From assembly GCA_964430885.1 (NCBI GenBank), contig CAYSHM010000003.1, positions 96,001 to 160,000 of the forward strand: a DNA stretch of 64,000 bases, in the 5' to 3' direction. Shown one piece after another: positions 33,058 through 45,566 of the stretch. The stretch's first letter is position 1; the number at the start of each line of letters is the position of its first letter. The position numbers were made by a program, and so were the translations under genes. Below the pieces are notes generated by a model. The model saw only the letters and a list, made by a program, of their open reading frames with translations, had not been told where the DNA came from and made no database searches. The stretch comes from an uncultured archaeon (GTDB taxonomy: Archaea; Thermoplasmatota; Penumbrarchaeia; JASLWR01).

Positions 33058-36000
33058 TCATTCACTCTTTTTGGAGTTTTTTTTTGGTAAAGGTGGAATT
33101 TTTTTGGGCCGGGATAAGGGATGTACTTCTGCATAAGGTATGGTTTTATCACTTTCTACAGTTGATTTTGGTGAACTAACTTCATTTGAAGCTTGAACTG
33201 AACTGACCATTGGCAACGCCAGGTTGCTAGGAGAAGGAGGCAGAGGAGGGGGCGGGGGAATCTTTTTTGGTGCAGGGTGTTGCTGCTGTTGCGTAGTGAT
33301 TTCCGGCGAAGGTAAATGAAGTTTGGATAGATCGGGTTTTTGTTCGAAAATGCGTCCCTTCCTATTTTCTTTCGGCGGGTAATAATGTTGCTCTTTGAAA
33401 TTTTGCGGAGTTACATCTAAAATTAGGGGTTCAGCATTTATGCGCTGAATGTCAGCTTCAGTAATTCCCTTAGTGGGTTCTGACAGAATTTCAGTGTACT
33501 CAATTTCATTCTCGTCATATTCAATATAACCATCATTGCGACGCTTTCTAAGTCCGATTAACAGCAATATAATTATTAAAGCCAAAATTATTATTGCCAC
33601 TGGCCAAAGCCACCAGTATGAGCTGTCAGAAGTGACAACATCGTCCTTGTCGATTATTACTAGAGTTATTGTTTCCGTTGTAGTTATATTCGAGTATCCT
33701 ATACTCACCGTCACATCATATTTACCTTTCAGGGTGTTTTCAACATCCACAAATCTAAGAATCAATAAAACTTCTTCTCCAATATTCACATCAATTGAAT
33801 TCTGAACAATTACATATTTTGAAATCTCACCAAGGATACTTATTTCAGCAACTTCATTGAATTCACCAAGATTCAGTAAGGTAATTTTAACCTCGGCCCA
33901 AGAGCCAGCTGTAATTTCTAAATATTTTTTTTCTAATGTTACATTTATTTTATGAATCAATTTCTCTCCGATTTTCACCGTGAACTGAAAGACTGAACTG
34001 TTGAAAACAATATTGGTCGTCCCCAAATATGCTTGTACCATCCAATAATATGTAGAATTATTCACTAATTCATCCACTTCTATGGATGTGTTGATTGTTT
34101 CATGGAAGTGAACTGAAAGGTTTTCCGGGGAAAAACCAATTAAAACATTGAAGGTGATATTTACACCCTGAGTATTGAAAGCTGTCCAGTTCAATGTAGT
34201 TGAGGTCGTATTTATAATTGATGAATTTTCAGGAGAAAGTAAGGAAAGTGTAATGTTAGGTTTTGTTGAGAAATCCAATATCTCAACCGTGATGTTTCTG
34301 TAATTTGAACCTCCATCTTTGTCATTGAGCTCAAATCTTATCATACCCTTACCGCTTTTCTCGGCCGATGACGGGATGATTGTTAGATCGGATTGATCCT
34401 TTATGAACGTTTCGAACAATCCAATCGGTCCAAATTCAATAATATGCCAAAACAATGAGGGCCCATCTTCGGCATCTTTGCCGTATCCTGTTAAATTCAT
34501 AGTGGAATCATGGTCGTTGTATACAAGAATTCCCGTGAAATTCTGATCAAACATAGGCAAGTTATTGAGGATTATCATTGAAGAATTAACATAGTGCCAA
34601 TCCGCCGTAATACCGTCATTATCTTTAATCATAACTCGAAAGGAGGGTGGGCCAGTATCAAAATTCAATGGTACTATCCATTCAGCTGAATAGTTCTGAC
34701 CTTCATTGTTGTAATACACATCCAAGTTCTGCCAGGATCTGGTTCTTGTTCGAACTTGAACAATAGGAAGAGAGAAATCAACTCCAACACCTGGAACCTC
34801 ATCATCAATGAAAATGAATACTGATTCACCTCTAAATGCGGAAACAGGAGCAACATTGAAACTGAATTGGTTTACTGGTTTGGTATTGTTGTCCAAAACA
34901 GCAAGAGTGAACTCTGTGTGGTCCCAACCACCATTGCCGTCATCAACGGAAATATTTACCGAAAAGTTCCCTATATCAGATCGCTTTGGTGAACCGAACA
35001 GGGTCCCATCCTCATTGTCAAAATAAAGCCATGTGGCATTGGAAACAAAATGCCATGTAATTTCGCCCTGGCCGTCATCGGTGGAGTTATAGTCGTTATA
35101 ATATTCTTCATCTTGGTCAATCACTATGATATTTGATGTAATAATTTGGGGAGGAATATTGTTAATAGTAAGAATAAAATTAATAGAAACGCTGCAGTAT
35201 TCATCAGAAATCGTCGCATTAATCCAGAAAGTACCTACGTCTCCGTTATTTGGAATCCCATGAATTGAACCATTATTGGAAAACGTGAGCCAATTGGGTT
35301 TGGTTACTACATCCCATTCACCCGGGTTGTATCCGTATTCAACGATGCATTGTCCATAATAATAATGGTCTTCATAAGGTGTCAAATTTGTTGGCATTGA
35401 TATTTTAAGACACAATGGGCAATCATCTGAAGCCATGGATGCACCATCCAGCTCATAAACAATGTCAACAACACCGAATGGAGATAGATCATCAGGTTCA
35501 ACCCAATTTGACCAATAGTTGCCTTTTGAACCAGTGTCCCAATAATTTCCCGTTCCATCATCCTGTGCTTGGGAGAAATGATGTTTATTCTCAAGTATAA
35601 AGTTCTCATGTATAGAGTTGAAATCAGAATGACCATTTACACTTAAACCATATTCTGAATTGTCGATAATTGTATTTTTGGAGATTGTATTGCTGTTTGA
35701 TCTATCTAAGTGGATACCGCCTCTGATACCGTTTTCATAATAATGACTGATCTCATTTACCGATAGAAAGCGGTTATAGATACAAATTTCATCAATTTGA
35801 CCGTCAAAAAAACGCGGATTTCCAGTATCATATAATTTCCCGATCCGTAAGGGAGTCCCAGGATTTACTAAATCTGGATCCCCAGTTCCTCCAACAGTAG
35901 TAGATGACTCCATTCCATCTATATATATTGAAATATCCTTTTCATATGCATCATACACACAAGAAACAAAATGCCATTCATTATCCGCTACATCATCATT

Positions 36001-37854
36001 GGAATATTCCCACCGATTCATATTATTATTACCCTGGACAAATAATCTCACCTTACCTGACACAATTCTGAAATTGTAATGATCTCTTTCGGTCGGTTTT
36101 GCCAAAATGGTATTATCTCCGTCCGAATTGGATGTTTTTATCCAGGCGGTCATTGAGAAATCATTTCTGCCGAAATGGTGAGAAACGTCGTCGTTGATCT
36201 CAATGGAATCATCAAATCCGTCAAAAAAACCTGAATTATAATACCTTCCGGGGGAAAGAGTGGCCCCTCCTTCTGCGGTTCCATGGTTTCCAAATCCTGA
36301 ATCATCCTTTACCTCGTCAGTATTCCCGCCCCATGAAATCTCATCCATCTTCCAGTGACCCACAAGACCCGCACGGGTTTTCGTATCAGCTGCATAATTT
36401 GAACCAACTGTATTACTAGTTATCTGGTTCCCGTTTGAGGAATCTAACAATAGACCTGAAACTCCATTGTTTATCAATTCATTGTTCATCAATGTATTGC
36501 CTTCGGAATGGGCCAAATCAATTCCGTTTCCCTTGTTTGAATCAATGGTGTTATTCGTTAAGCCATTATCATCCGAATTGGACAGAAAAATTCCGCTATT
36601 AACACCGAAGATGAAATTACGAAGGATTTCATCTCGTGTTAGGGGGCGGTTATAGATTCTAACCTCATCTATGGGGCCACAGTTGTTCTCATTTGTTTCA
36701 CACTCGTATCTGCCGATTTGAATATCACGTCCATAATTGGAGATTGAACCTGTGGTAGGCAGGAAATTTTCCCGTATGCCGTTAACAAATATGCACATTT
36801 TTGACCCATCGAAAGAACCGGTAACATGATACCAAATTCCCAATTGAGGAATTGTCCTGCTTTCTATGAGATGCAGTGTGTTCCCAATGGATAACTCAAA
36901 AGCAAAGTTCGAAGCTGCACCATCAAGGCCAATCGCCCATTCCTGATAAGGTGAAGTTGGAAAAGAAGAGTAGGATTTGGAAATTATTTTATCGTATGCA
37001 CCCTTTGTATTGTATTTCACCCATGCAGAAATCGTTAGACCATCGCCCATATTGAATTCTGGAACGTGAGGTATGGATATATAATCATTGACACCATCAA
37101 AATTTCCCGCGGTCCCTAGTATTCCCGGAACATTGGTCATTCCTCCGTAAATAGTACCGTCGTTCCCCAATCCGCTGAAATCCTTTACTTCACCTCCCCA
37201 CGGGACATCGTCCATCCTCCAGTATCCGACTAGTCCGGAAGTAGCAGGATCCATACCAAAATTTCGAACGACGGTATTATTATCCAATTTGTTAAAATTG
37301 GAATTGTTCAGGTGAATTCCCCGATTATTACCTTCAAGATGACAGTTCTCAATAGTATTATGATTGGAGTTCAACAGAATTCCCGCAGCACCAGGCTCCA
37401 CACCACTGTTTGTTATCTTAAAACCATTGATGGTACAATAATCACCGTTAACGGTTATTACCGACCCCGCTCCGGAACCATTTATCTCTGTGAATCCAGG
37501 CCCCATCCCTTGAATGGTTATAGATTTGCCTGATGGAACGATGATATTCTCTATATATTGACCTTCACTAACCCTTATCGTATCACCCGAAGGACCGGCT
37601 GCCAGAACTGCAGCGGATATCGATGGGTAGACCTCGGGAACTTCAAGGCTGTTCCGGATTCTTGAAGATCCCATCGGAAATAGATTGGTTTCGGATTCAT
37701 CACCTACTGATAAAGACTCGGATTCATCGTAAAATATATTTGTTTCAAGTTTTTCATGTGGATTTGAATGCATTGGAGAAAATATGAATACGGTATTGAT
37801 CATCAAGAGGAAGAGTGTTATTATGGAAAACCGTTTATTCATTCCAAGCACCAT
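33058..37854 (-). CDS. Large single-pass surface protein: NosD/pectin-lyase-like beta-helix, two LamG domains, cadherin/Ig-like repeats, TM, Pro-rich tail
   Basis: YPSISAAV..GDTIRVSEGQY; GIxLxxSxxNxIxxN repeats; GLVGYWRMD..FDGVNDY and GLVGHWKMD..FDGFDDS; GNYWSNW; TM WWLWPVAIIIL; PPPPPLPP. Confidence 0.88.
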   Translation of the reverse strand: MVLGMNKRFSIITLFLLMINTVFIFSPMHSNPHEKLETNIFYDESESLSVGDESETNLFPMGSSRIRNSLEVPEVYPSISAAVLAAGPSGDTIRVSEGQYIENIIVPSGKSITIQGMGPGFTEINGSGAGSVITVNGDYCTINGFKITNSGVEPGAAGILLNSNHNTIENCHLEGNNRGIHLNNSNFNKLDNNTVVRNFGMDPATSGLVGYWRMDDVPWGGEVKDFSGLGNDGTIYGGMTNVPGILGTAGNFDGVNDYISIPHVPEFNMGDGLTISAWVKYNTKGAYDKIISKSYSSFPTSPYQEWAIGLDGAASNFAFELSIGNTLHLIESRTIPQLGIWYHVTGSFDGSKMCIFVNGIRENFLPTTGSISNYGRDIQIGRYECETNENNCGPIDEVRIYNRPLTRDEILRNFIFGVNSGIFLSNSDDNGLTNNTIDSNKGNGIDLAHSEGNTLMNNELINNGVSGLLLDSSNGNQITSNTVGSNYAADTKTRAGLVGHWKMDEISWGGNTDEVKDDSGFGNHGTAEGGATLSPGRYYNSGFFDGFDDSIEINDDVSHHFGRNDFSMTAWIKTSNSDGDNTILAKPTERDHYNFRIVSGKVRLFVQGNNNMNRWEYSNDDVADNEWHFVSCVYDAYEKDISIYIDGMESSTTVGGTGDPDLVNPGTPLRIGKLYDTGNPRFFDGQIDEICIYNRFLSVNEISHYYENGIRGGIHLDRSNSNTISKNTIIDNSEYGLSVNGHSDFNSIHENFILENKHHFSQAQDDGTGNYWDTGSKGNYWSNWVEPDDLSPFGVVDIVYELDGASMASDDCPLCLKISMPTNLTPYEDHYYYGQCIVEYGYNPGEWDVVTKPNWLTFSNNGSIHGIPNNGDVGTFWINATISDEYCSVSINFILTINNIPPQIITSNIIVIDQDEEYYNDYNSTDDGQGEITWHFVSNATWLYFDNEDGTLFGSPKRSDIGNFSVNISVDDGNGGWDHTEFTLAVLDNNTKPVNQFSFNVAPVSAFRGESVFIFIDDEVPGVGVDFSLPIVQVRTRTRSWQNLDVYYNNEGQNYSAEWIVPLNFDTGPPSFRVMIKDNDGITADWHYVNSSMIILNNLPMFDQNFTGILVYNDHDSTMNLTGYGKDAEDGPSLFWHIIEFGPIGLFETFIKDQSDLTIIPSSAEKSGKGMIRFELNDKDGGSNYRNITVEILDFSTKPNITLSLLSPENSSIINTTSTTLNWTAFNTQGVNITFNVLIGFSPENLSVHFHETINTSIEVDELVNNSTYYWMVQAYLGTTNIVFNSSVFQFTVKIGEKLIHKINVTLEKKYLEITAGSWAEVKITLLNLGEFNEVAEISILGEISKYVIVQNSIDVNIGEEVLLILRFVDVENTLKGKYDVTVSIGYSNITTTETITLVIIDKDDVVTSDSSYWWLWPVAIIILALIIILLLIGLRKRRNDGYIEYDENEIEYTEILSEPTKGITEADIQRINAEPLILDVTPQNFKEQHYYPPKENRKGRIFEQKPDLSKLHLPSPEITTQQQQHPAPKKIPPPPPLPPSPSNLALPMVSSVQASNEVSSPKSTVESDKTIPYAEVHPLSRPKKIPPLPKKNSKKSE

Positions 37855-37950
37855 TATTCGGCTTAAATGAAGTTTTTGATTTTAATTTTTACTCCTTCTT
37901 TTTTATAAAACACTTCTGTTAGAGTGTGGGATTTCAGTAATGAATGAGAA

Positions 37951-38445
37951 TCAATCTTCATAGATTTTCTCAAAAAAACCGGTCTTTCTGTTCTTCCTCA
38001 CGTTATCCCATTCGAAATATTGTCCATTCATGACTATATAGATTCCATTATCAAGAGATTGAACGAAAGCAAGCGCGCTTCCGAGATTGAAAAGTCCGTC
38101 TGAACTTCCAAAAGTATAAGGGATCATAGCACCTGTCAATACAATGGTTTTATTATGAATTTTTTCGGCCAACAATTGGGCAGTTTTTTCCATTGTATCC
38201 GTACCATGGGTTACAATGATCTTATCTTCCTTTGCTTTTAAACAGTTAATCAAGATTATTTCCCGATCCTCATCCGTAATACTGAGACTGTCCACCATCA
38301 TCAATGTACGGATCTCATAAGGAACCATAGATCGCCCAAGTTTAAGCATCTCCTGAATATGGGTGTCTTTGAAAAAGAGTTCTCCGTTGATCATATTGTA
38401 TTCCTTGTCGAAAGTTCCGCCAGTAACGAAAATCTTGATTGTCAT
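37951..38445 (-). CDS. Short-chain asparaginase (N-terminal catalytic domain only)
   Basis: VTGGTFDK, HGTDTM, VLTGAM and SDGLFNLG; ~164 aa with no C-terminal domain. Confidence 0.88.
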   Translation of the reverse strand: MTIKIFVTGGTFDKEYNMINGELFFKDTHIQEMLKLGRSMVPYEIRTLMMVDSLSITDEDREIILINCLKAKEDKIIVTHGTDTMEKTAQLLAEKIHNKTIVLTGAMIPYTFGSSDGLFNLGSALAFVQSLDNGIYIVMNGQYFEWDNVRKNRKTGFFEKIYED

Positions 38446-38611
38446 CGATGCGGAGTGAATTCCAATGTTCATTATAAACTTTGTTTTTCAAATTATTGTT
38501 TTAATGTGGAACTCGACCCATCTGGAAAACAATGGATAGTGTTAAGTCATGATGATAAATTTAATGAAGTAACGGTTTTGATAATGGGTCTTGCTTATTG
38601 TAATTAAAAAT

Positions 38612-38833
38612 TTATAACTGTTTAAAATCAGGTTTGGCGGATTTGGACATGTATTCAATACCGACATAATTCAAGTTATAATATATTATTCCAAGACGTT
38701 TCAGTTGTTTAGCATATTTCCAAAATTTTTCTTCACTTATATTCAATTCCTTGGTTAATAAAGAAACAAGAACCATTTGTCCAGGCTCATCTATGTGTTT
38801 GGCAATTTGATCAAATACTACAACCAGATCCAA
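38612..38833 (-). CDS. Small winged-helix-like protein
   Basis: TTG follows a GGTGA SD; the pattern KELNISEEKFWKYAKQLKRLGIIY resembles a wHTH. Confidence 0.55.
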   Translation of the reverse strand: MDLVVVFDQIAKHIDEPGQMVLVSLLTKELNISEEKFWKYAKQLKRLGIIYYNLNYVGIEYMSKSAKPDFKQL

Positions 38834-39035
38834 TTTCTCACCAAAAATTGCTATCGCGCTTAGGGTTTAAAAAGATTTTGAACTCAATCAATCGAAACCT
38901 GACATTTTTGTAGATATGTTTCATTTATAATCCTAAATTCCAGTCCACATTAAAATCTTACCACTGAGGGATTTATCAGTGATACTTAGATAAACTAAGA
39001 GTTTAATAATGAGCCATTGCTTCGGTGGATGCAAG

Positions 39036-40472
39036 ATGATATCCCTAATATGGCTAATGATGAAGGAGGAGTTCAGGTTCCATACCAATTTCGCCTCCAA
39101 GGTAAATTTCTTCTTTTTTCCCGTTATTGCCCTACTGGTGGGCGCCATCGGTCCATTGGGGATACCCAACATCTCCGAGAGCATGGACATTGAAAGAATG
39201 GTTATCTATCTGCATGTTTCCATGCTATTCTACGGCTTCTCCATCGGCAGCATTACCTTTCTCGGTGGGGATTATATTGAACGGCGGTTCGGCAATGTGA
39301 CATTTATCCGGTTCACCCCGAGAACCCTTCCCTGGAGTTTCCGAAAAGCCTTCGCGGTCTACTATATCCAGGACCTGATCTTCTATCTTCTCTTGACCAT
39401 AATACCCCTCACCGCAGGCGGTATGATATCTTCCTTTATTCAGGGTATGAACCCTGGCCAGGCCCTCCTGCTTGGATTCACCTTTTTCCTGGCATTCAGC
39501 ACTGGGCTGACCTTTTCATTTCTGTCTGCCGGGATTTTCAGCCGCGGGAAGAAGTTCTTCATCCCTTACGCTGTACTCCTGGTAACCGGAATAATCTCCA
39601 TGGTGGTGGTACCTGAATCCATCCATAGGTTCCTATTACCCTCCTATCAGTTCTTTCAAACAAAGAATTACCTTTTCATGATACTGAATATTCTCTATGT
39701 TGCACTGCTCTTTGACTTGGGGGTGATGCTTATCAGAGAATATCCTGCCAAACGGATGTTCAAGGTCAAGAGCGTGCTCCATGAGATCCATAAACGCTTC
39801 TCGTTCAGCAGGAACTATTCACTGATGATATCAAAGGAGATCATAGATATCAAGCGGTCCAATACCATTTCCAAAATGCTTTTTTCCACTGTTATGCCCC
39901 TGCTTCTCATTACTGGAATGACATGGTTCATTGAGACCGGGTTCGATCTTGAACTGGGATTCAATACCGTGTTCTATGCCAGCCTGATAGGTTATTTTCA
40001 GGTGGTCACCTACAGCTGGATGAACAACTCGGAAAAGGTGGATTACTACGAAACACTGCCGGTCACAGTGGCCAAGGTTATAAAGTCCAAGATAATGGTA
40101 TGCGTGGTAATAGCAAATCTGATGTCATTCCTTTTTGTGATATTCGTTTCATTCCTGCTGAAAGAAGTGGAACTTGTACCCATAGCTCTGGCGGTGATGT
40201 TCTTCAACATACTTTACTGCGTGACGGTCATAGGTTATCTTACAGGTCTGAGGACAAATTCGGCTCTGTTTGATATCAGGATACTGATGAAGTTCAGCGC
40301 CTTTGCAATGGTTCCGCTAATATTCATGATGGCATTTTCCAGGATAATCGATAATAAATGGATATTCGCCCTGGTATCCCTTGTGGGTGTCTGTATAATA
40401 ATGGGCGGTGTTGTGCTCCTCCTATACCGGGCTATAGATAATAAATGGAAGAACGAAAGGTTCGTCATATAA
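39036..40472 (+). CDS. Polytopic membrane protein, ABC-exporter permease-like (two TM halves)
   Basis: About 12 hydrophobic segments. The halves repeat: MMKEEFR..TLPWSFRK and ISKEIIDIKR..YETLPVTVAKVI. Confidence 0.7.
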   Translation: MISLIWLMMKEEFRFHTNFASKVNFFFFPVIALLVGAIGPLGIPNISESMDIERMVIYLHVSMLFYGFSIGSITFLGGDYIERRFGNVTFIRFTPRTLPWSFRKAFAVYYIQDLIFYLLLTIIPLTAGGMISSFIQGMNPGQALLLGFTFFLAFSTGLTFSFLSAGIFSRGKKFFIPYAVLLVTGIISMVVVPESIHRFLLPSYQFFQTKNYLFMILNILYVALLFDLGVMLIREYPAKRMFKVKSVLHEIHKRFSFSRNYSLMISKEIIDIKRSNTISKMLFSTVMPLLLITGMTWFIETGFDLELGFNTVFYASLIGYFQVVTYSWMNNSEKVDYYETLPVTVAKVIKSKIMVCVVIANLMSFLFVIFVSFLLKEVELVPIALAVMFFNILYCVTVIGYLTGLRTNSALFDIRILMKFSAFAMVPLIFMMAFSRIIDNKWIFALVSLVGVCIIMGGVVLLLYRAIDNKWKNERFVI

Positions 40473-40479
40473 CTTCAAA

Positions 40480-41538
40480 TTGGCAGATGCTGCTTTAACG
40501 ATTGACAAATATAAATTGAACAACGAGGTGATCCGGATACGGGAATGGGTAAGACCCCTATATACTGAAAGGCCGAAGATAGGGATTGTCGGAACTGGAA
40601 TCGGCGGTTCGGGTCTCATCGATGAACTTCGGGAGATGAGCCTGCTCTTCCGGAATATCGATGACCTGGTACTGGTCCAGATGGAATCCCTTAACAGTAT
40701 GGGTCCTATCTGGGATTCACAGGGTTTCGAGTTCGATTCCTTTTTGGAGGACGGGGGAAAGGATGGACTTGAAGGTGACCTTATCGGCAGGGATTGGCTG
40801 GATAGAAACCTGATGATGATGAATCCGGCCTATTCCATCCTCCGCAATATGCCCCTGGAAACAGTTAAATGGGCTGCGCATCTCGTTTTAGAGCTTGACA
40901 TGGTCTACATTATCAGCGAATTGAAAAAGGACGCCCTTGACCTGTGTCTTCTCATCGACGCCCTGTGCACAAAGTTCGATAGAAATGATATACTGTTTCT
41001 GGTCAGACCCGACTCCATTCTGGAGAGCCACAATATCCGCTATTACAACAACCGCACCCAGCACCTCTCCTTATGTTCAGACTGCGCCATAATGACACCT
41101 GAACTGATTATGGATAACCCGGATGACCTGGCCGAGATAATAATCGGCCTTCACAAGGTCATCTTTCATACCGGAACAGTTAACATCGACCTAGCAGATG
41201 TCCGGAGCATTGCAGGGTCGGGAAACGTCGGTATGATAGGCGTGGGAAGGGGCAAGGGGCTGACAAAGGCGGAGCAGGCCTCCAAAAGGGTGGTGAAGCA
41301 CCCTATGATAGATATCGACATATCCTGGATACGCCGGCTGATAATCTGTGTGGAAGGTGGTGCGGATATGACCATAAATGAGAGCAAGGTGGCATCCCAG
41401 TTCATAAAAGAGAAACTCAAAGAGGAAGCGAAGATAATTTGGGGTGCATATGTAAATCCAAAGATGTCCCAGCGGTTGGACATAGTGCTGTTAGTGGGGT
41501 TGACGGCAAATCAGGCCCTGACCCGTAAGCTTTACTGA
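40480..41538 (+). CDS. Divergent FtsZ-like protein (tubulin signature motif lost, T7 loop and C-domain retained)
   Basis: KIGIVGTGIGG, DMVYII, GTVNIDLADV, GMIGVG, HPMIDIDI, VEGGADMTINE and AKIIWGA all match FtsZ; there is no GGGTG(T/S)G. Confidence 0.85.
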   Translation: MADAALTIDKYKLNNEVIRIREWVRPLYTERPKIGIVGTGIGGSGLIDELREMSLLFRNIDDLVLVQMESLNSMGPIWDSQGFEFDSFLEDGGKDGLEGDLIGRDWLDRNLMMMNPAYSILRNMPLETVKWAAHLVLELDMVYIISELKKDALDLCLLIDALCTKFDRNDILFLVRPDSILESHNIRYYNNRTQHLSLCSDCAIMTPELIMDNPDDLAEIIIGLHKVIFHTGTVNIDLADVRSIAGSGNVGMIGVGRGKGLTKAEQASKRVVKHPMIDIDISWIRRLIICVEGGADMTINESKVASQFIKEKLKEEAKIIWGAYVNPKMSQRLDIVLLVGLTANQALTRKLY

Positions 41539-41661: not shown

Positions 41662-42867
41662 ATGAACAGACAAACAGAAAGAGGATTGATCGTTTCGGCA
41701 GTGGGATTCTTCTCGAGTATTTTCTTCGGCGTATTGGCTGCGGTGGGTGCGGGCACCGCCTGCTGTCTCATCGATATGATAGGGCTGTTCGGCCTTATCC
41801 TCATTTATATCGGGAGGTTTGACCACGGAAAATCCCACCAGACATTCGCAAAATATGCCATTATCATCTATATCGTAGTAAACCTGGGAATATTATTCTT
41901 CAATTTCACTGAGCCCGGCGTTCTGGAGGTCACTCTAATCAGTGGTGTTCAGATAGCCCTCCTCATGCTGGTGGCCTTCCTGATGGCGTTTAAATTGGTG
42001 GATTCCACGGGGAAACAGCTTCTGGCCTTGGGTCTGGTCCTAGGTGTTGTTGGTGCGGGTACTTTGACCTTCATGAGCATGCCAATTAATCAAGAAAACG
42101 ATGACATTCAATCCGAACTGGAAAAATTCATTGATGACAAGGATGAACGATCGGACGCCATGCTATCACCTTCAGTCATAAAGAAGGATTACAAGAACGA
42201 TATCAAGGAGAATGAGATCAACGATACCGAGAGCTACCAGCGTCTGAACCGGCTGTATATGGAATGGCGGAACCAGACAGATCTCAATCATTCGGCATAT
42301 ACCATAACAATTGCCGCTCTGGCGGATATCAACAGCACCCTTTATGAGCTCAATACCTCATTGAAGGAACCTGGGCACTCAACAAAGGACGAGAATCTGA
42401 CCCTTGAGCTTCTGAACATCACCATCAATATCAAGAAGGATGTCATAAACAATAACAGGGATTACTGGAACAAGACAAATGCAATACGCCTCCTTAAGGA
42501 CTATCTGGATAACGCGGAAGAAATGAACATGGTACTTCTGGCAAAGGCTCCCGGACTCCTTTTCTTCGGATTTGCATATCTGCGTTGCTATAAGCGGACA
42601 AAAAAATACAATGATGAACAGGAACTCCTCATGAAGCAGGAGAGACAGCGGCTCTTGGAAGAGCAAGCTCTGGCGGATAAGGACGATGAGCTTGAGGACG
42701 ATGAAGAGGAAGAAGATCCGAGGCCTGATGATAGGAAAAAAGGAACGGCCAAGGGTTCAAAGAAGAAATCCGGCGAAAAGAAAAAAACCTCTCGACCAGT
42801 GGAAGACGATGATGAGCTTGATGATATTATGAATATATCCGAAATTAAGAAGAAATACAGCAATTGA
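41662..42867 (+). CDS. Hypothetical polytopic membrane protein with large helical loop and charged C-terminal tail
   Basis: About five N-terminal TMs, a soluble helical region with N-x-S/T sequons, a further TM, then a D/E/K-rich tail. Confidence 0.75.
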   Translation: MNRQTERGLIVSAVGFFSSIFFGVLAAVGAGTACCLIDMIGLFGLILIYIGRFDHGKSHQTFAKYAIIIYIVVNLGILFFNFTEPGVLEVTLISGVQIALLMLVAFLMAFKLVDSTGKQLLALGLVLGVVGAGTLTFMSMPINQENDDIQSELEKFIDDKDERSDAMLSPSVIKKDYKNDIKENEINDTESYQRLNRLYMEWRNQTDLNHSAYTITIAALADINSTLYELNTSLKEPGHSTKDENLTLELLNITINIKKDVINNNRDYWNKTNAIRLLKDYLDNAEEMNMVLLAKAPGLLFFGFAYLRCYKRTKKYNDEQELLMKQERQRLLEEQALADKDDELEDDEEEEDPRPDDRKKGTAKGSKKKSGEKKKTSRPVEDDDELDDIMNISEIKKKYSN

Positions 42868-44363: not shown

Positions 44364-45566
44364 TCAAAGATCAATCCCGTATGACTCTTTGAGCTTTCCC
44401 CTTATTTTCACAGGAACATTCCCCTCGATATCCGTAAACCTTATACGGCTGAACTCCCCAAGTCCAAGGTCTAGCTGGGTAAGGGTCTGCCATATCCTAT
44501 CCTGCACCATTCCCTTTTCATTAACAAGTTTTTTCAAAAGTGGTTCCACAACCCTCATATCGCCTAATTCAGAAAATGCTTTAGCCACTTCCCAACGAAC
44601 ATGCATATCATCATCGGACAGCAATTTCAGTAAGGGATCAAATACAGGGATATCCGACGAAGGCACCAATCTTCCCAGAGCCTTTGCTGAAGCCCTCCTC
44701 ACCCGGGGATTTTTATCAGAAAGTGTCTGAATTATTCCCTGTACCCCTCCTGTGTCCCCGATTTCCCCTAGGGTCCAAACCGCGCCTTCTCTAATATTGG
44801 CATCTTCATGGGAAAGGGCATCAAGCAAACTGGTAACGGCCATTCCTCCGAACTCCACCAAGGTTCGAGCTGCTGCCCGTTGCAGTGGGGGTTTCTTGTG
44901 AGACAGCTCAATTACACTGAGACTGTCATCGGTTTCGGCCTGTGATAATAAAGGAATGATACAGGCAATGCTCCCTTTGTCCCGTATCTTGCCGAGGGCG
45001 CTCAGAGCAGCCCTTACTACGTCAGATGAGGGGTCTGACAGCATGGGTAAGATATATTCGGCGTAATCCCCGGGATGATTGACCGCAATACGGCCTATGG
45101 CCCTGAGACATGCATATCTTACATATCTGTTTTCACTGATCAAGTTATGAATCAGTACGTCCTTTTCATCAGTACCTACCAGGCTCTCAATGGTCTTCAT
45201 CAACTGCATCCTACTACACTCATCATCAGAATCCAGTTGGTCGAAAAGAGCAGCCATAGGGGAATTGCTCCCATCCCTTTTCAGGGGATGACATCTTTGG
45301 CATGAATGTAGAATACCTTCCTTGGTGATCATCCATTCATCCTGCAGTTCCATTACCCTGTCGGACCGGCCGCAGGTAGGACATGTGTACGGGGATTCAT
45401 CTGGCGATTCACCATCCGAACCATTGATCAAGCGCATACTATGGGAGCAGTGATCACATATCCAAAAGGGAAGCGGTCTTACGGCAATGGAGACCTGCCC
45501 CTGATTGGGAGAATGAAGTTCAACTATCATGTCGGCATTGCATTTAGGGCACTTTAAGTAAACCAC
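44364..45566 (-). CDS. Zinc-ribbon + HEAT (PBS-lyase-type) repeat protein
   Basis: CPKC, CDHC, CPTC and CQRC; repeats VVRAALSALGKI, IREGAVWTLGEIG, VRRASAKALGRL and VRWEVAKAFSELG. Confidence 0.85.
   Translation of the reverse strand: MVYLKCPKCNADMIVELHSPNQGQVSIAVRPLPFWICDHCSHSMRLINGSDGESPDESPYTCPTCGRSDRVMELQDEWMITKEGILHSCQRCHPLKRDGSNSPMAALFDQLDSDDECSRMQLMKTIESLVGTDEKDVLIHNLISENRYVRYACLRAIGRIAVNHPGDYAEYILPMLSDPSSDVVRAALSALGKIRDKGSIACIIPLLSQAETDDSLSVIELSHKKPPLQRAAARTLVEFGGMAVTSLLDALSHEDANIREGAVWTLGEIGDTGGVQGIIQTLSDKNPRVRRASAKALGRLVPSSDIPVFDPLLKLLSDDDMHVRWEVAKAFSELGDMRVVEPLLKKLVNEKGMVQDRIWQTLTQLDLGLGEFSRIRFTDIEGNVPVKIRGKLKESYGIDL

Follow-up and report, generated by a model that had tools for sequence, protein, structure and literature searches.

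Introduction

In the filaments of Staphylococcus aureus FtsZ, as described in PMC8936486, the contact between subunits has four regions, to which the upper subunit supplies the T7 loop, H8, S9 and H10, and the lower one H1/H2, T3, T5 and the H6-H7 loop. The T7 residues N208, D210 and D213 position metal-linked and catalytic waters at the GTP of the lower subunit, and mutation of any one of them abolishes assembly (PMC8936486). The C-terminal, or T7, face is the plus (growing) end of the filament (PMC9897490, PMC8936486), and SulA, MciZ and MipZ are described as regulating FtsZ by occupying a polymerisation face (PMC9897490). Here we describe a gene, psi-FtsZ, that lies in a 64,000-nucleotide stretch of DNA from an uncultured archaeon of the class Penumbrarchaeia, phylum Thermoplasmatota (GenBank assembly GCA_964430885.1, contig CAYSHM010000003.1, positions 96,001 to 160,000; the whole stretch is called the window below). 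Its product appears to belong to a class-wide, FtsZ-derived family in which the GTP pocket has been lost and the T7 loop kept, and whose T7 face might act on canonical FtsZ.

The closest functional analogy is plant ARC3, which is not known to carry the signature motif of FtsZ and reportedly enhances the GTPase activity of FtsZ2. ARC3 is described as having an FtsZ-like domain, as not forming the ring and as directly inhibiting Z-ring assembly under the control of the inner-membrane protein ARC6 (10.1101/2024.01.08.574726, PMC12232670). We liken it to psi-FtsZ by function and from such descriptions: ARC3 is a eukaryotic, plastid protein with middle and MORN domains, whereas psi-FtsZ is a single 352-residue module with no MORN match, and the two are presumed to be of independent origin. 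Nmar_1262 of Nitrosopumilus maritimus, an FtsZ-like protein that according to PMC3684127 has neither GGGTGTG nor T7 and does not polymerise in yeast, belongs to a Cdv-dividing host, whereas T7 is invariant in psi-FtsZ and the genomes that encode it retain canonical FtsZ. Agrobacterium FtsZ1 and FtsZ3, truncated paralogues of the Hyphomicrobiales, are thought to tune division, and continuous expression of FtsZ1 inhibits it; these paralogues are bacterial and are described as duplications of the FtsZ GTPase (PMC13732431). The Tubulin_2 FtsZ-like families of Makarova and Koonin (2010), presented as divergent within the superfamily and as having links to membrane genes (PMC2875224, PMC9871819) and as lacking FtsZ_C (PMC9871819), are the reverse of psi-FtsZ, which has FtsZ_C and no Tubulin_2 (PF13809) match at E <= 0.1. 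CetZ and the tubulin-domain paralogues need PF00091 and the signature motif, and psi-FtsZ has no PF00091 match. SulA, MciZ and MipZ have unrelated folds that cover the T7 (plus-end) face, whereas psi-FtsZ would itself present a T7 face and occupy the opposite end.

To our knowledge, the known regulators of FtsZ filament ends are unrelated small proteins of this kind, which cover the T7 face, and we know of no prokaryotic relative of FtsZ that serves as a non-polymerising end subunit. No FtsZ paralogue that has lost its pocket but retained its T7 loop was found described in the literature searched, subscription journals and supplements being outside its scope. The superfamily survey in PMC9871819, as it describes its method, gathered homologues by PF00091, and surveys of that kind would miss psi-FtsZ because it has no PF00091 match.

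Likeness of psi-FtsZ to FtsZ

The gene and the features within it on which the comparison depends are as follows.

40480..41538, + strand: psi-FtsZ gene (FtsZ paralogue without GTP pocket), 352 aa, TTG start, uninterrupted open reading frame (ORF)
40591..40608, + strand: remnant of the T1 loop, GTGIGG, residues 38-43
40915..40944, + strand: acidic segment SELKKDALDL at the T4 position, residues 146-155
41182..41199, + strand: T7 loop, NIDLAD, residues 235-240
41230..41493, + strand: FtsZ_C domain (PF12327), residues 251-338, including GGxDMT and IIWGA
41500..41535, + strand: terminal helix motif LTANQALTRKLY, with which psi-FtsZ ends

An earlier note on this DNA, made from its letters, had read the ORF by eye as a degenerate FtsZ with an intact T7 loop, and the motifs it quoted (GTGIGG, SELKKDALDL, NIDLAD and AKIIWGA) are all present in the translation. 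The likeness to FtsZ is far above chance, with matches by PF12327, hhalign, Foldseek and VIA. PF12327 scored 68.1 bits (E 8.6e-19; cut-off 27), while the GTPase domain PF00091 gave no match to psi-FtsZ at E <= 0.1 in the Pfam scan. The TIGR00065 equivalog model scored 77.3 bits, below its cut-off of 295.2, with a match confined to residues 217-341. Of the features of cell-division FtsZ, psi-FtsZ lacks PF00091, the signature GGGTG(T/S)G and the C-terminal linker and peptide, and it has the two-domain fold, a T7 loop of the NxDxxD type and FtsZ_C. The best phmmer match to FtsZ chains in the PDB (E 3e-16) covered the C-terminal half only, residues 217-339 (about 200-345 across chains). Alignment by hhalign to 25 canonical FtsZ sequences extended over residues 119-347, from H3 to the end, with a probability of 100 and E 7.8e-49; it placed SELKKDALDL opposite the canonical GMGGGTGTG and a 14-residue deletion at H6/H6-H7 of psi-FtsZ. 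By sequence FtsZ is recognisable only in the C-terminal half of the protein; by profile and structure the likeness extends to all of it. The one named family member from the word-indexed search described below is recorded at NCBI as a "hypothetical protein" of a Thermoplasmatota metagenome-assembled genome.

An AlphaFold2 model based on a 7-row alignment had a mean predicted local distance difference test score (pLDDT) of 79.4 and a predicted template modelling score of 0.81, and pLDDT in the N-domain was 72-94 except at residues 89-96. Foldseek matched the model to FtsZ structures at E 6e-22 over 330-350 columns, 1ofu (the SulA:FtsZ structure) being among the matches, and VIA superposed model residues 25-345 on residues 4-316 of an FtsZ chain (Z 24.4, root-mean-square deviation 4.2 Å, 276 residues). 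According to the model, psi-FtsZ retains the entire two-domain FtsZ fold. It shares with canonical archaeal FtsZ, represented by the two copies in the same genome, the fold, homology from H3 to the last strand, FtsZ_C, the T7 residues N, D and D, GGxDMT and IIWGA; it differs from them in having no PF00091, no GGGTG and no linker or peptide, and in forming a separate clade.

Nucleotide pocket and T7 loop

To describe the family we compared 46 non-duplicate sequences, consisting of 35 representatives and 11 ORFs from genome loci (two loci identical to representatives were dropped), and counted residues at positions where canonical FtsZ shows little or no variation, in canonical numbering. All 46 sequences have the N, the D and the D of T7. 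N235, D237, A239 and D240 are invariant columns in a 28-sequence alignment (A2) whose mean column identity is 24%, as are G293, I320 and G322 in the FtsZ_C domain. Three further glycines are also retained (G268 and G306 in 45/46 each, G335 in 46/46).

The state of the nucleotide pocket is very different. At T4, G144, G148, T149 and G152 are kept in none of the 46 sequences, G146 and G147 in 2 each and G150 in 12, and the commonest residue at each of the six former T4 glycines is Asp or Glu. The T2 residues N84 and D86 are found in 2/46 each and the T3 residue G112 in 0/46, so that the absence of the NTD and GxGAG loops reported in the earlier note is borne out for the family. As for the other pocket residues, F176 and the H5 arginine R183 are found in no sequence, E179 in 2/46 and the T6 asparagine N206 in 6/46, while F222 is deleted in 46/46 and D226 is kept in 2/46. 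By these counts the nucleotide pocket is dismantled: loops T2, T3 and T4, the contacts of T5, the arginine of H5, the asparagine of T6 and the H6-H7 segment have been replaced or deleted. One point in the earlier note needs correcting, in that a GxGxxG remnant of T1 survives: G38, G40 and G43 are retained in the window copy and its 6 closest relatives. Across the wide family the four T1 glycines occur in 17, 27, 9 and 16 of 46 sequences (G38, G40 and G43 being the 17, 27 and 16), and the clade in which psi-FtsZ follows a family-B DNA polymerase (PolB) gene, described below, is without the T1 GxGxxG loop entirely.

The end of the protein is equally characteristic. psi-FtsZ terminates 12 residues past the last strand, without a linker or a C-terminal peptide, and all 46 family sequences end no more than about a dozen residues from a related motif, mostly TPxQ(V/A)L...Y. 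The canonical FtsZ proteins of the window genome, in contrast, extend into tails that end in GIDFIR or IPYIE. The marks of the family as read from the alignment are thus the lack of a T4 signature, an acidic T4 segment, the invariant T7 N/D/D and an end of the TPxQ(V/A)L..Y type, and the window protein fits them. The central claims of the earlier note, that the protein is derived from FtsZ, has lost its nucleotide-binding loops (the T4 glycines are gone) and has an intact T7 loop, therefore stand. It had named homologues that keep GGGTG, or a T7 loop that is not conserved, as signs against them; of the first 59 protein ids that were inspected, 37 belong to the family and none of these has GGGTG, and the T7 loop is conserved as stated above.

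Conservation was also resolved by structural element, as identity between the family and the canonical consensus. Element boundaries are approximate, having been taken from motif positions and from DSSP of the model.

Upper-subunit elements, identity to canonical consensus: T7 0.74; S9 0.59; GGxDMT plus H10 0.47; H8 0.38
Lower-subunit elements, identity to canonical consensus: T5 0.26; H1 0.10; T3 0.07; T2/H2 0.03; H6-H7 0.02 (84% gaps)

In this alignment T7, H8, GGxDMT/H10 and S9 with IIWGA, which are the contact elements of the upper subunit, are the best conserved parts of the family. The pattern supports, short of proof, docking of psi-FtsZ through its T7 face. A complex prediction with FtsZ of the same genome, GTP, Mg and psi-FtsZ gave ipSAE interface scores of 0.00 and 0.00, which is no answer either way; its inputs were residues 36-360 of the FtsZ on contig 2 (25-row alignment) and residues 28-352 of psi-FtsZ (28-row alignment).

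Distribution, selection and phylogeny

A word-indexed search found 11 proteins at E <= 0.001 among 4429 candidates, of which 7 (P0001-P0007, 36-100% identical) carry FtsZ_C only and 4 are canonical FtsZ. An exhaustive profile search found 8546 proteins at E <= 0.001, of which 30 reached E <= 1e-30. Among the first 59 ids inspected, 37 both lack GGGTG and carry N-[LIV]-D-x-A-D, and 36 of these 37 also end in the TPxQ(V/A)L..Y-type motif, the exception being P0014, whose end differs.

The window genome (3.13 Mb in 44 contigs, 91.6% complete) carries the psi-FtsZ gene alongside two genes for canonical FtsZ (380 and 398 aa), each of which retains GMGGGTGTG. A tubulin-domain paralogue of 443 aa is encoded on contig 14 (L006:1072-2403); it has GLGGGTGTG and an N-terminal extension of about 150 residues, gave no match to FtsZ_C and is possibly CetZ-like. 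When matches to a hidden Markov model of the family were counted as family-type if they extended upstream of T7 and reached the terminal helix, 27 of the 37 species genomes of the class had one: all four genomes of the window's family, five genomes in four other families and 18/24 of the largest family. Three further, divergent copies in the remaining three families, read by eye, bring this to 30/37 genomes and to all nine families, and the 7 genomes without a copy are 62-89% complete. All genomes with psi-FtsZ also encode canonical FtsZ. One member, L074:1021-2607 (G001), is 529 aa long, its C-terminal domain being split after T7/S7 by a low-complexity charged insert of about 200 residues.

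Outside the class, 364 genomes of other classes of the phylum were sampled; all of the matches listed have canonical FtsZ coordinates, and a further 594 weaker matches lie beyond those listed. Five complete genomes of other families gave 20 matches, and 6/6 loci read keep the signature motif. psi-FtsZ was thus not found outside the class in the genomes searched, and we do not claim that it is absent there. Tail-less FtsZ proteins of other Thermoplasmatota families (L065:886-1899 and L066:937-1878; 314-338 aa) resemble psi-FtsZ in being short and without a tail, but they retain GLGGGTGTG or GLGGGTGSG and have NLDLMD as T7, and it is this retained signature that led us to reject the idea that psi-FtsZ is one of them. 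In L066 the match includes a single in-frame TGA.

Selection was estimated as the ratio of nonsynonymous to synonymous divergence (dN/dS) by the Nei-Gojobori method, using only pairs with unsaturated synonymous divergence.

Pair L030/L032: dN/dS 0.055, dS 0.46
Pair L009/L010: dN/dS 0.17, dS 0.92
Pair L035/L036: dN/dS 0.06, dS 1.27

When the gene was divided, dN/dS was 0.02-0.04 for T7 and the C-terminal part and 0.07-0.25 for the N-terminal part, the latter values being upper bounds because some stop-to-stop leader sequence is included. Both halves of psi-FtsZ are under purifying selection.

A tree was built from 88 rows, comprising 42 family members (>= 280 aa), 21 canonical FtsZ sequences from the class and 25 canonical representatives, over a 200-residue region centred on T7; it was obtained by a quick IQ-TREE search with support from the Shimodaira-Hasegawa-like approximate likelihood ratio test (SH-aLRT) only. 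One branch (SH-aLRT 100) parts the 42 family rows from the 46 canonical rows, and the 8 rows of the window's clade group with the 10 rows of the PolB-linked clade as its sister (support 98). The tree gives no parent for the family among the canonical FtsZ paralogues. A further canonical FtsZ type from other families of the class (L045, L046, L048, L049 and L052) forms a separate clade, and its tails end in a WDIxL/S motif in 3/5 (L046, L049 and L052). This type was not found in the window genome at its completeness of 91.6%, whose two FtsZ proteins sit in the other canonical clade.

Gene neighbourhood

In the lineage of the window, psi-FtsZ is the middle gene of a conserved block of three.

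39009..40472, + strand: upstream membrane gene, 487 aa, about 11-12 hydrophobic segments, first of the conserved three-gene block
41662..42867, + strand: downstream membrane gene, 401 aa (400-440 aa in relatives)
42823..42864, + strand: conserved 14-residue C-terminal peptide of the downstream protein, the best conserved stretch of its tail

The stop codon of the upstream ORF and the start of psi-FtsZ are separated by 7 nt. A hydropathy scan found 11 segments in the upstream product, which has no Pfam or NCBIfam match at E <= 0.1. The only likeness comes from a language-model atlas, which sets it beside archaeal clusters where 11-56% of the members carry DUF5687 or 12TM_1, families with 12 transmembrane (TM) segments (scores 0.95-0.98); this is a lead only. 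The earlier note had called the gene ABC-permease-like. An ABC ATPase partner is encoded neither by the two nearest upstream reverse-strand ORFs, which are winged helix-turn-helix (wHTH)-like and asparaginase-like, nor by the two preceding genes in relatives. Homologues of the upstream gene (49-50% identity) lie directly upstream of psi-FtsZ in loci L007, L008, L009, L010 and L012.

At the N terminus of the downstream product are four to five TM segments; 10 N-glycosylation sequons (NxS/T) lie in the weakly conserved region that comes next, and one more TM segment leads to a charged, acidic-then-basic tail that, apart from its terminal peptide, is poorly conserved in an alignment of 4 homologues. 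No family match was found for it, and its best atlas score of 0.75 is uninformative. From the TM layout, the sequons and the conserved tail end, we infer a cytoplasmic tail whose end would serve as a docking peptide. Homologues of this gene (28-33% identity) follow psi-FtsZ in L007-L010 and L012. The order of 12-TM gene, psi-FtsZ, membrane protein and ornithine carbamoyltransferase is found in 4/4 genomes of the window's family and on two public contigs, which probably derive from two of the same four genomes. This conserved order agrees with the earlier suggestion of a membrane-associated module, and it is the reason why a mobile or foreign origin of the psi-FtsZ gene was rejected. PADLOC returned no match for any of the three block genes and hence no sign of a defence system. 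Three seawater metatranscriptome runs contained next to none of the sampled words of the locus.

The genes immediately before the 12-TM gene in relatives encode a CarboxypepD_reg-domain protein and a metallophosphoesterase. A segment of about 6 kb (33058-38833) stands between the phosphoesterase gene and the 12-TM gene in the window; it looks like an insertion because the flanking genes are adjacent in the relatives L007 and L008. The segment contains genes for a 1598-aa surface protein with a C-terminal TM segment and a proline-rich tail, an asparaginase-N-domain protein and a 73-aa wHTH protein, and it overlaps the lowest GC content of the window (0.38-0.41 at 34-40 kb). On the other side of psi-FtsZ, 44364..45566 on the minus strand has a 400-aa product with zinc-ribbon-like CxxC pairs near its N terminus and, after them, HEAT/PBS-lyase repeats (HEAT_2, E 7e-34).

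In the largest family of the class, psi-FtsZ directly follows the PolB gene (PF00136) in 8/8 loci fetched (L029-L036) of the 18 known, and a convergent gene for a protein with tetratricopeptide repeats (TPR) and a zinc ribbon comes after it. Locus L035 is an example.

L035, 3-1724: PolB
L035, 1728-2714: psi-FtsZ
L035, 2723-3718: TPR/zinc-ribbon gene

This arrangement may link replication to division. Elsewhere in the class psi-FtsZ adjoins a gene for an M48 peptidase or a Ras-like GTPase.

Discussion

The combination of a dismantled pocket with an invariant T7 loop suggests that psi-FtsZ is a class-wide family of FtsZ-derived pseudo-GTPases whose T7 face acts on canonical FtsZ, a reading to which we give a probability of roughly 0.45. 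Because the T7 N, D and D are invariant in proteins that have no pocket of their own, they are most simply explained as acting on a nucleotide in the pocket of another protein of the tubulin superfamily, which would here be canonical FtsZ or, possibly, the tubulin-domain paralogue. Canonical GTP binding would be lost in psi-FtsZ, and in that case a normal head-to-tail homopolymer is not expected. The T7 face of psi-FtsZ would dock on the GTP-bearing face of a canonical FtsZ monomer, or on the nucleotide-exposed end of a filament, and would there complete the FtsZ active site while leaving no site for the next subunit. The earlier note supposed that a docked psi-FtsZ blocks growth at the filament end. 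Published polarity speaks against this detail because the T7 face is the growing end, and a protein that has only a T7 face would sit at the shrinking (minus) end, where it would not block growth directly. It might act there as a cap, as a GTPase-activating protein (GAP) that triggers hydrolysis in the terminal subunit, or as a seed, which fits the polarity better; in the seeding variant, the FtsZ partner would grow from its own free T7 face. In the lineage of the window, the two co-encoded membrane proteins would probably hold psi-FtsZ at the membrane, one candidate tether being the conserved peptide that ends the presumably cytoplasmic tail of the downstream protein, and in the sister clade the predicted co-transcription with PolB hints at a link with replication. 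The consistently acidic T4 segment, together with selection on the N-terminal half, argues for a separate function of the remodelled top face, which may bind the co-encoded membrane proteins. A bolder form of the proposal is that psi-FtsZ is an end-binding pseudo-subunit comparable with gamma-tubulin, which seeds or caps the nucleotide-exposed end and is tied to a membrane complex or to the PolB replication machinery; taken as a whole, this seems unlikely.

Several observations weigh against the action of psi-FtsZ on canonical FtsZ through T7. The phenylalanine of the canonical NxDFxD motif is found in 0/46 family sequences, which have L, V, Q, H or I instead. The remainder of the C-domain is also better kept than the N-domain (S7 0.37, H9 0.40, S8 0.47), in which H3 scores 0.11 and H5 0.13, so that the asymmetry is largely domain-wide and, T7 and S9 excepted, does not single out the interface. 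Furthermore, T7, GGxDMT and IIWGA are core motifs of any FtsZ fold, and their conservation may be partly structural. The closest relatives share an invariant N-terminal motif of their own (W106, L107, L111 and N115), which together with the purifying selection on the N-terminal half implies that the N-terminal face has some function. The neighbours of the gene differ between clades and imply no single partner.

One alternative is that psi-FtsZ is an adaptor working away from FtsZ filaments, with the fold reused to bind membrane or replication proteins and T7 kept for folding or for a new contact. Such a role would agree with the tightly conserved, clade-specific gene neighbours and with the absence of the C-terminal peptide by which canonical FtsZ is linked to its anchors, and the thaumarchaeal FtsZ-like protein provides a precedent for leaving division, but that protein, as described, lost T7 too (PMC3684127). 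It is hard to explain by an adaptor role why the T7 triad is kept in 46/46 sequences at about 20% overall identity, unless there is a nucleotide and metal site in trans, and canonical FtsZ is present in every genome with psi-FtsZ; we consider this alternative doubtful. Another is a nucleotide-independent structural subunit, in which the acidic T4 segment mimics the phosphates, perhaps through a cation bridge, and allows static, non-hydrolysing assemblies of psi-FtsZ with itself or with FtsZ at the membrane. The consistently acidic replacement of T4, with Asp or Glu commonest at the six former glycine positions, the purifying selection on the N-terminal half (ω 0.07-0.25) and the invariant top-face motif in the closest relatives are what such a subunit would lead one to expect. 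However, the other top-face elements on which a longitudinal contact would depend, T3, T5 and H6-H7 (84% gaps), have been replaced or deleted, T7 would set its acidic aspartates against an acidic pocket, and no result of the analysis shows self-association, which makes this idea improbable. psi-FtsZ might also be a ligand switch that binds a nucleotide or another phosphorylated ligand non-canonically through GxGxxG on its Rossmann-like N-domain, given that G38, G40 and G43 are invariant among the closest relatives and that the model shows a well-folded N-domain (pLDDT 72-94 outside 89-96). A function shared by the family cannot rest on these glycines, however, because they are patchy across it (17, 27 and 16 of 46, and none in the PolB-linked clade), and the residues that contact the base have been lost (F222 is deleted in 46/46, D226 remains in 2/46 and N206 in 6/46); we regard a ligand switch as quite improbable. 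A decaying pseudogene or chance ORF, for which the TTG start and the lack of a Pfam match in the N-terminal half might speak, can be dismissed in view of the intact frame in all relatives read, dN/dS of 0.055-0.17, the presence in nine of nine families of the class and the confident fold prediction.

psi-FtsZ displays a complementary loss, in which the pocket is gone and T7 is kept, across a whole archaeal class. It offers a directly testable case for GAP or capping activity exerted in trans by a pseudo-GTPase of the tubulin superfamily, and it would be of use as a probe for the kinetic polarity of archaeal FtsZ. Were the proposal true in its bolder form, the whole class would have a built-in means of placing filament ends and of coupling replication to division.

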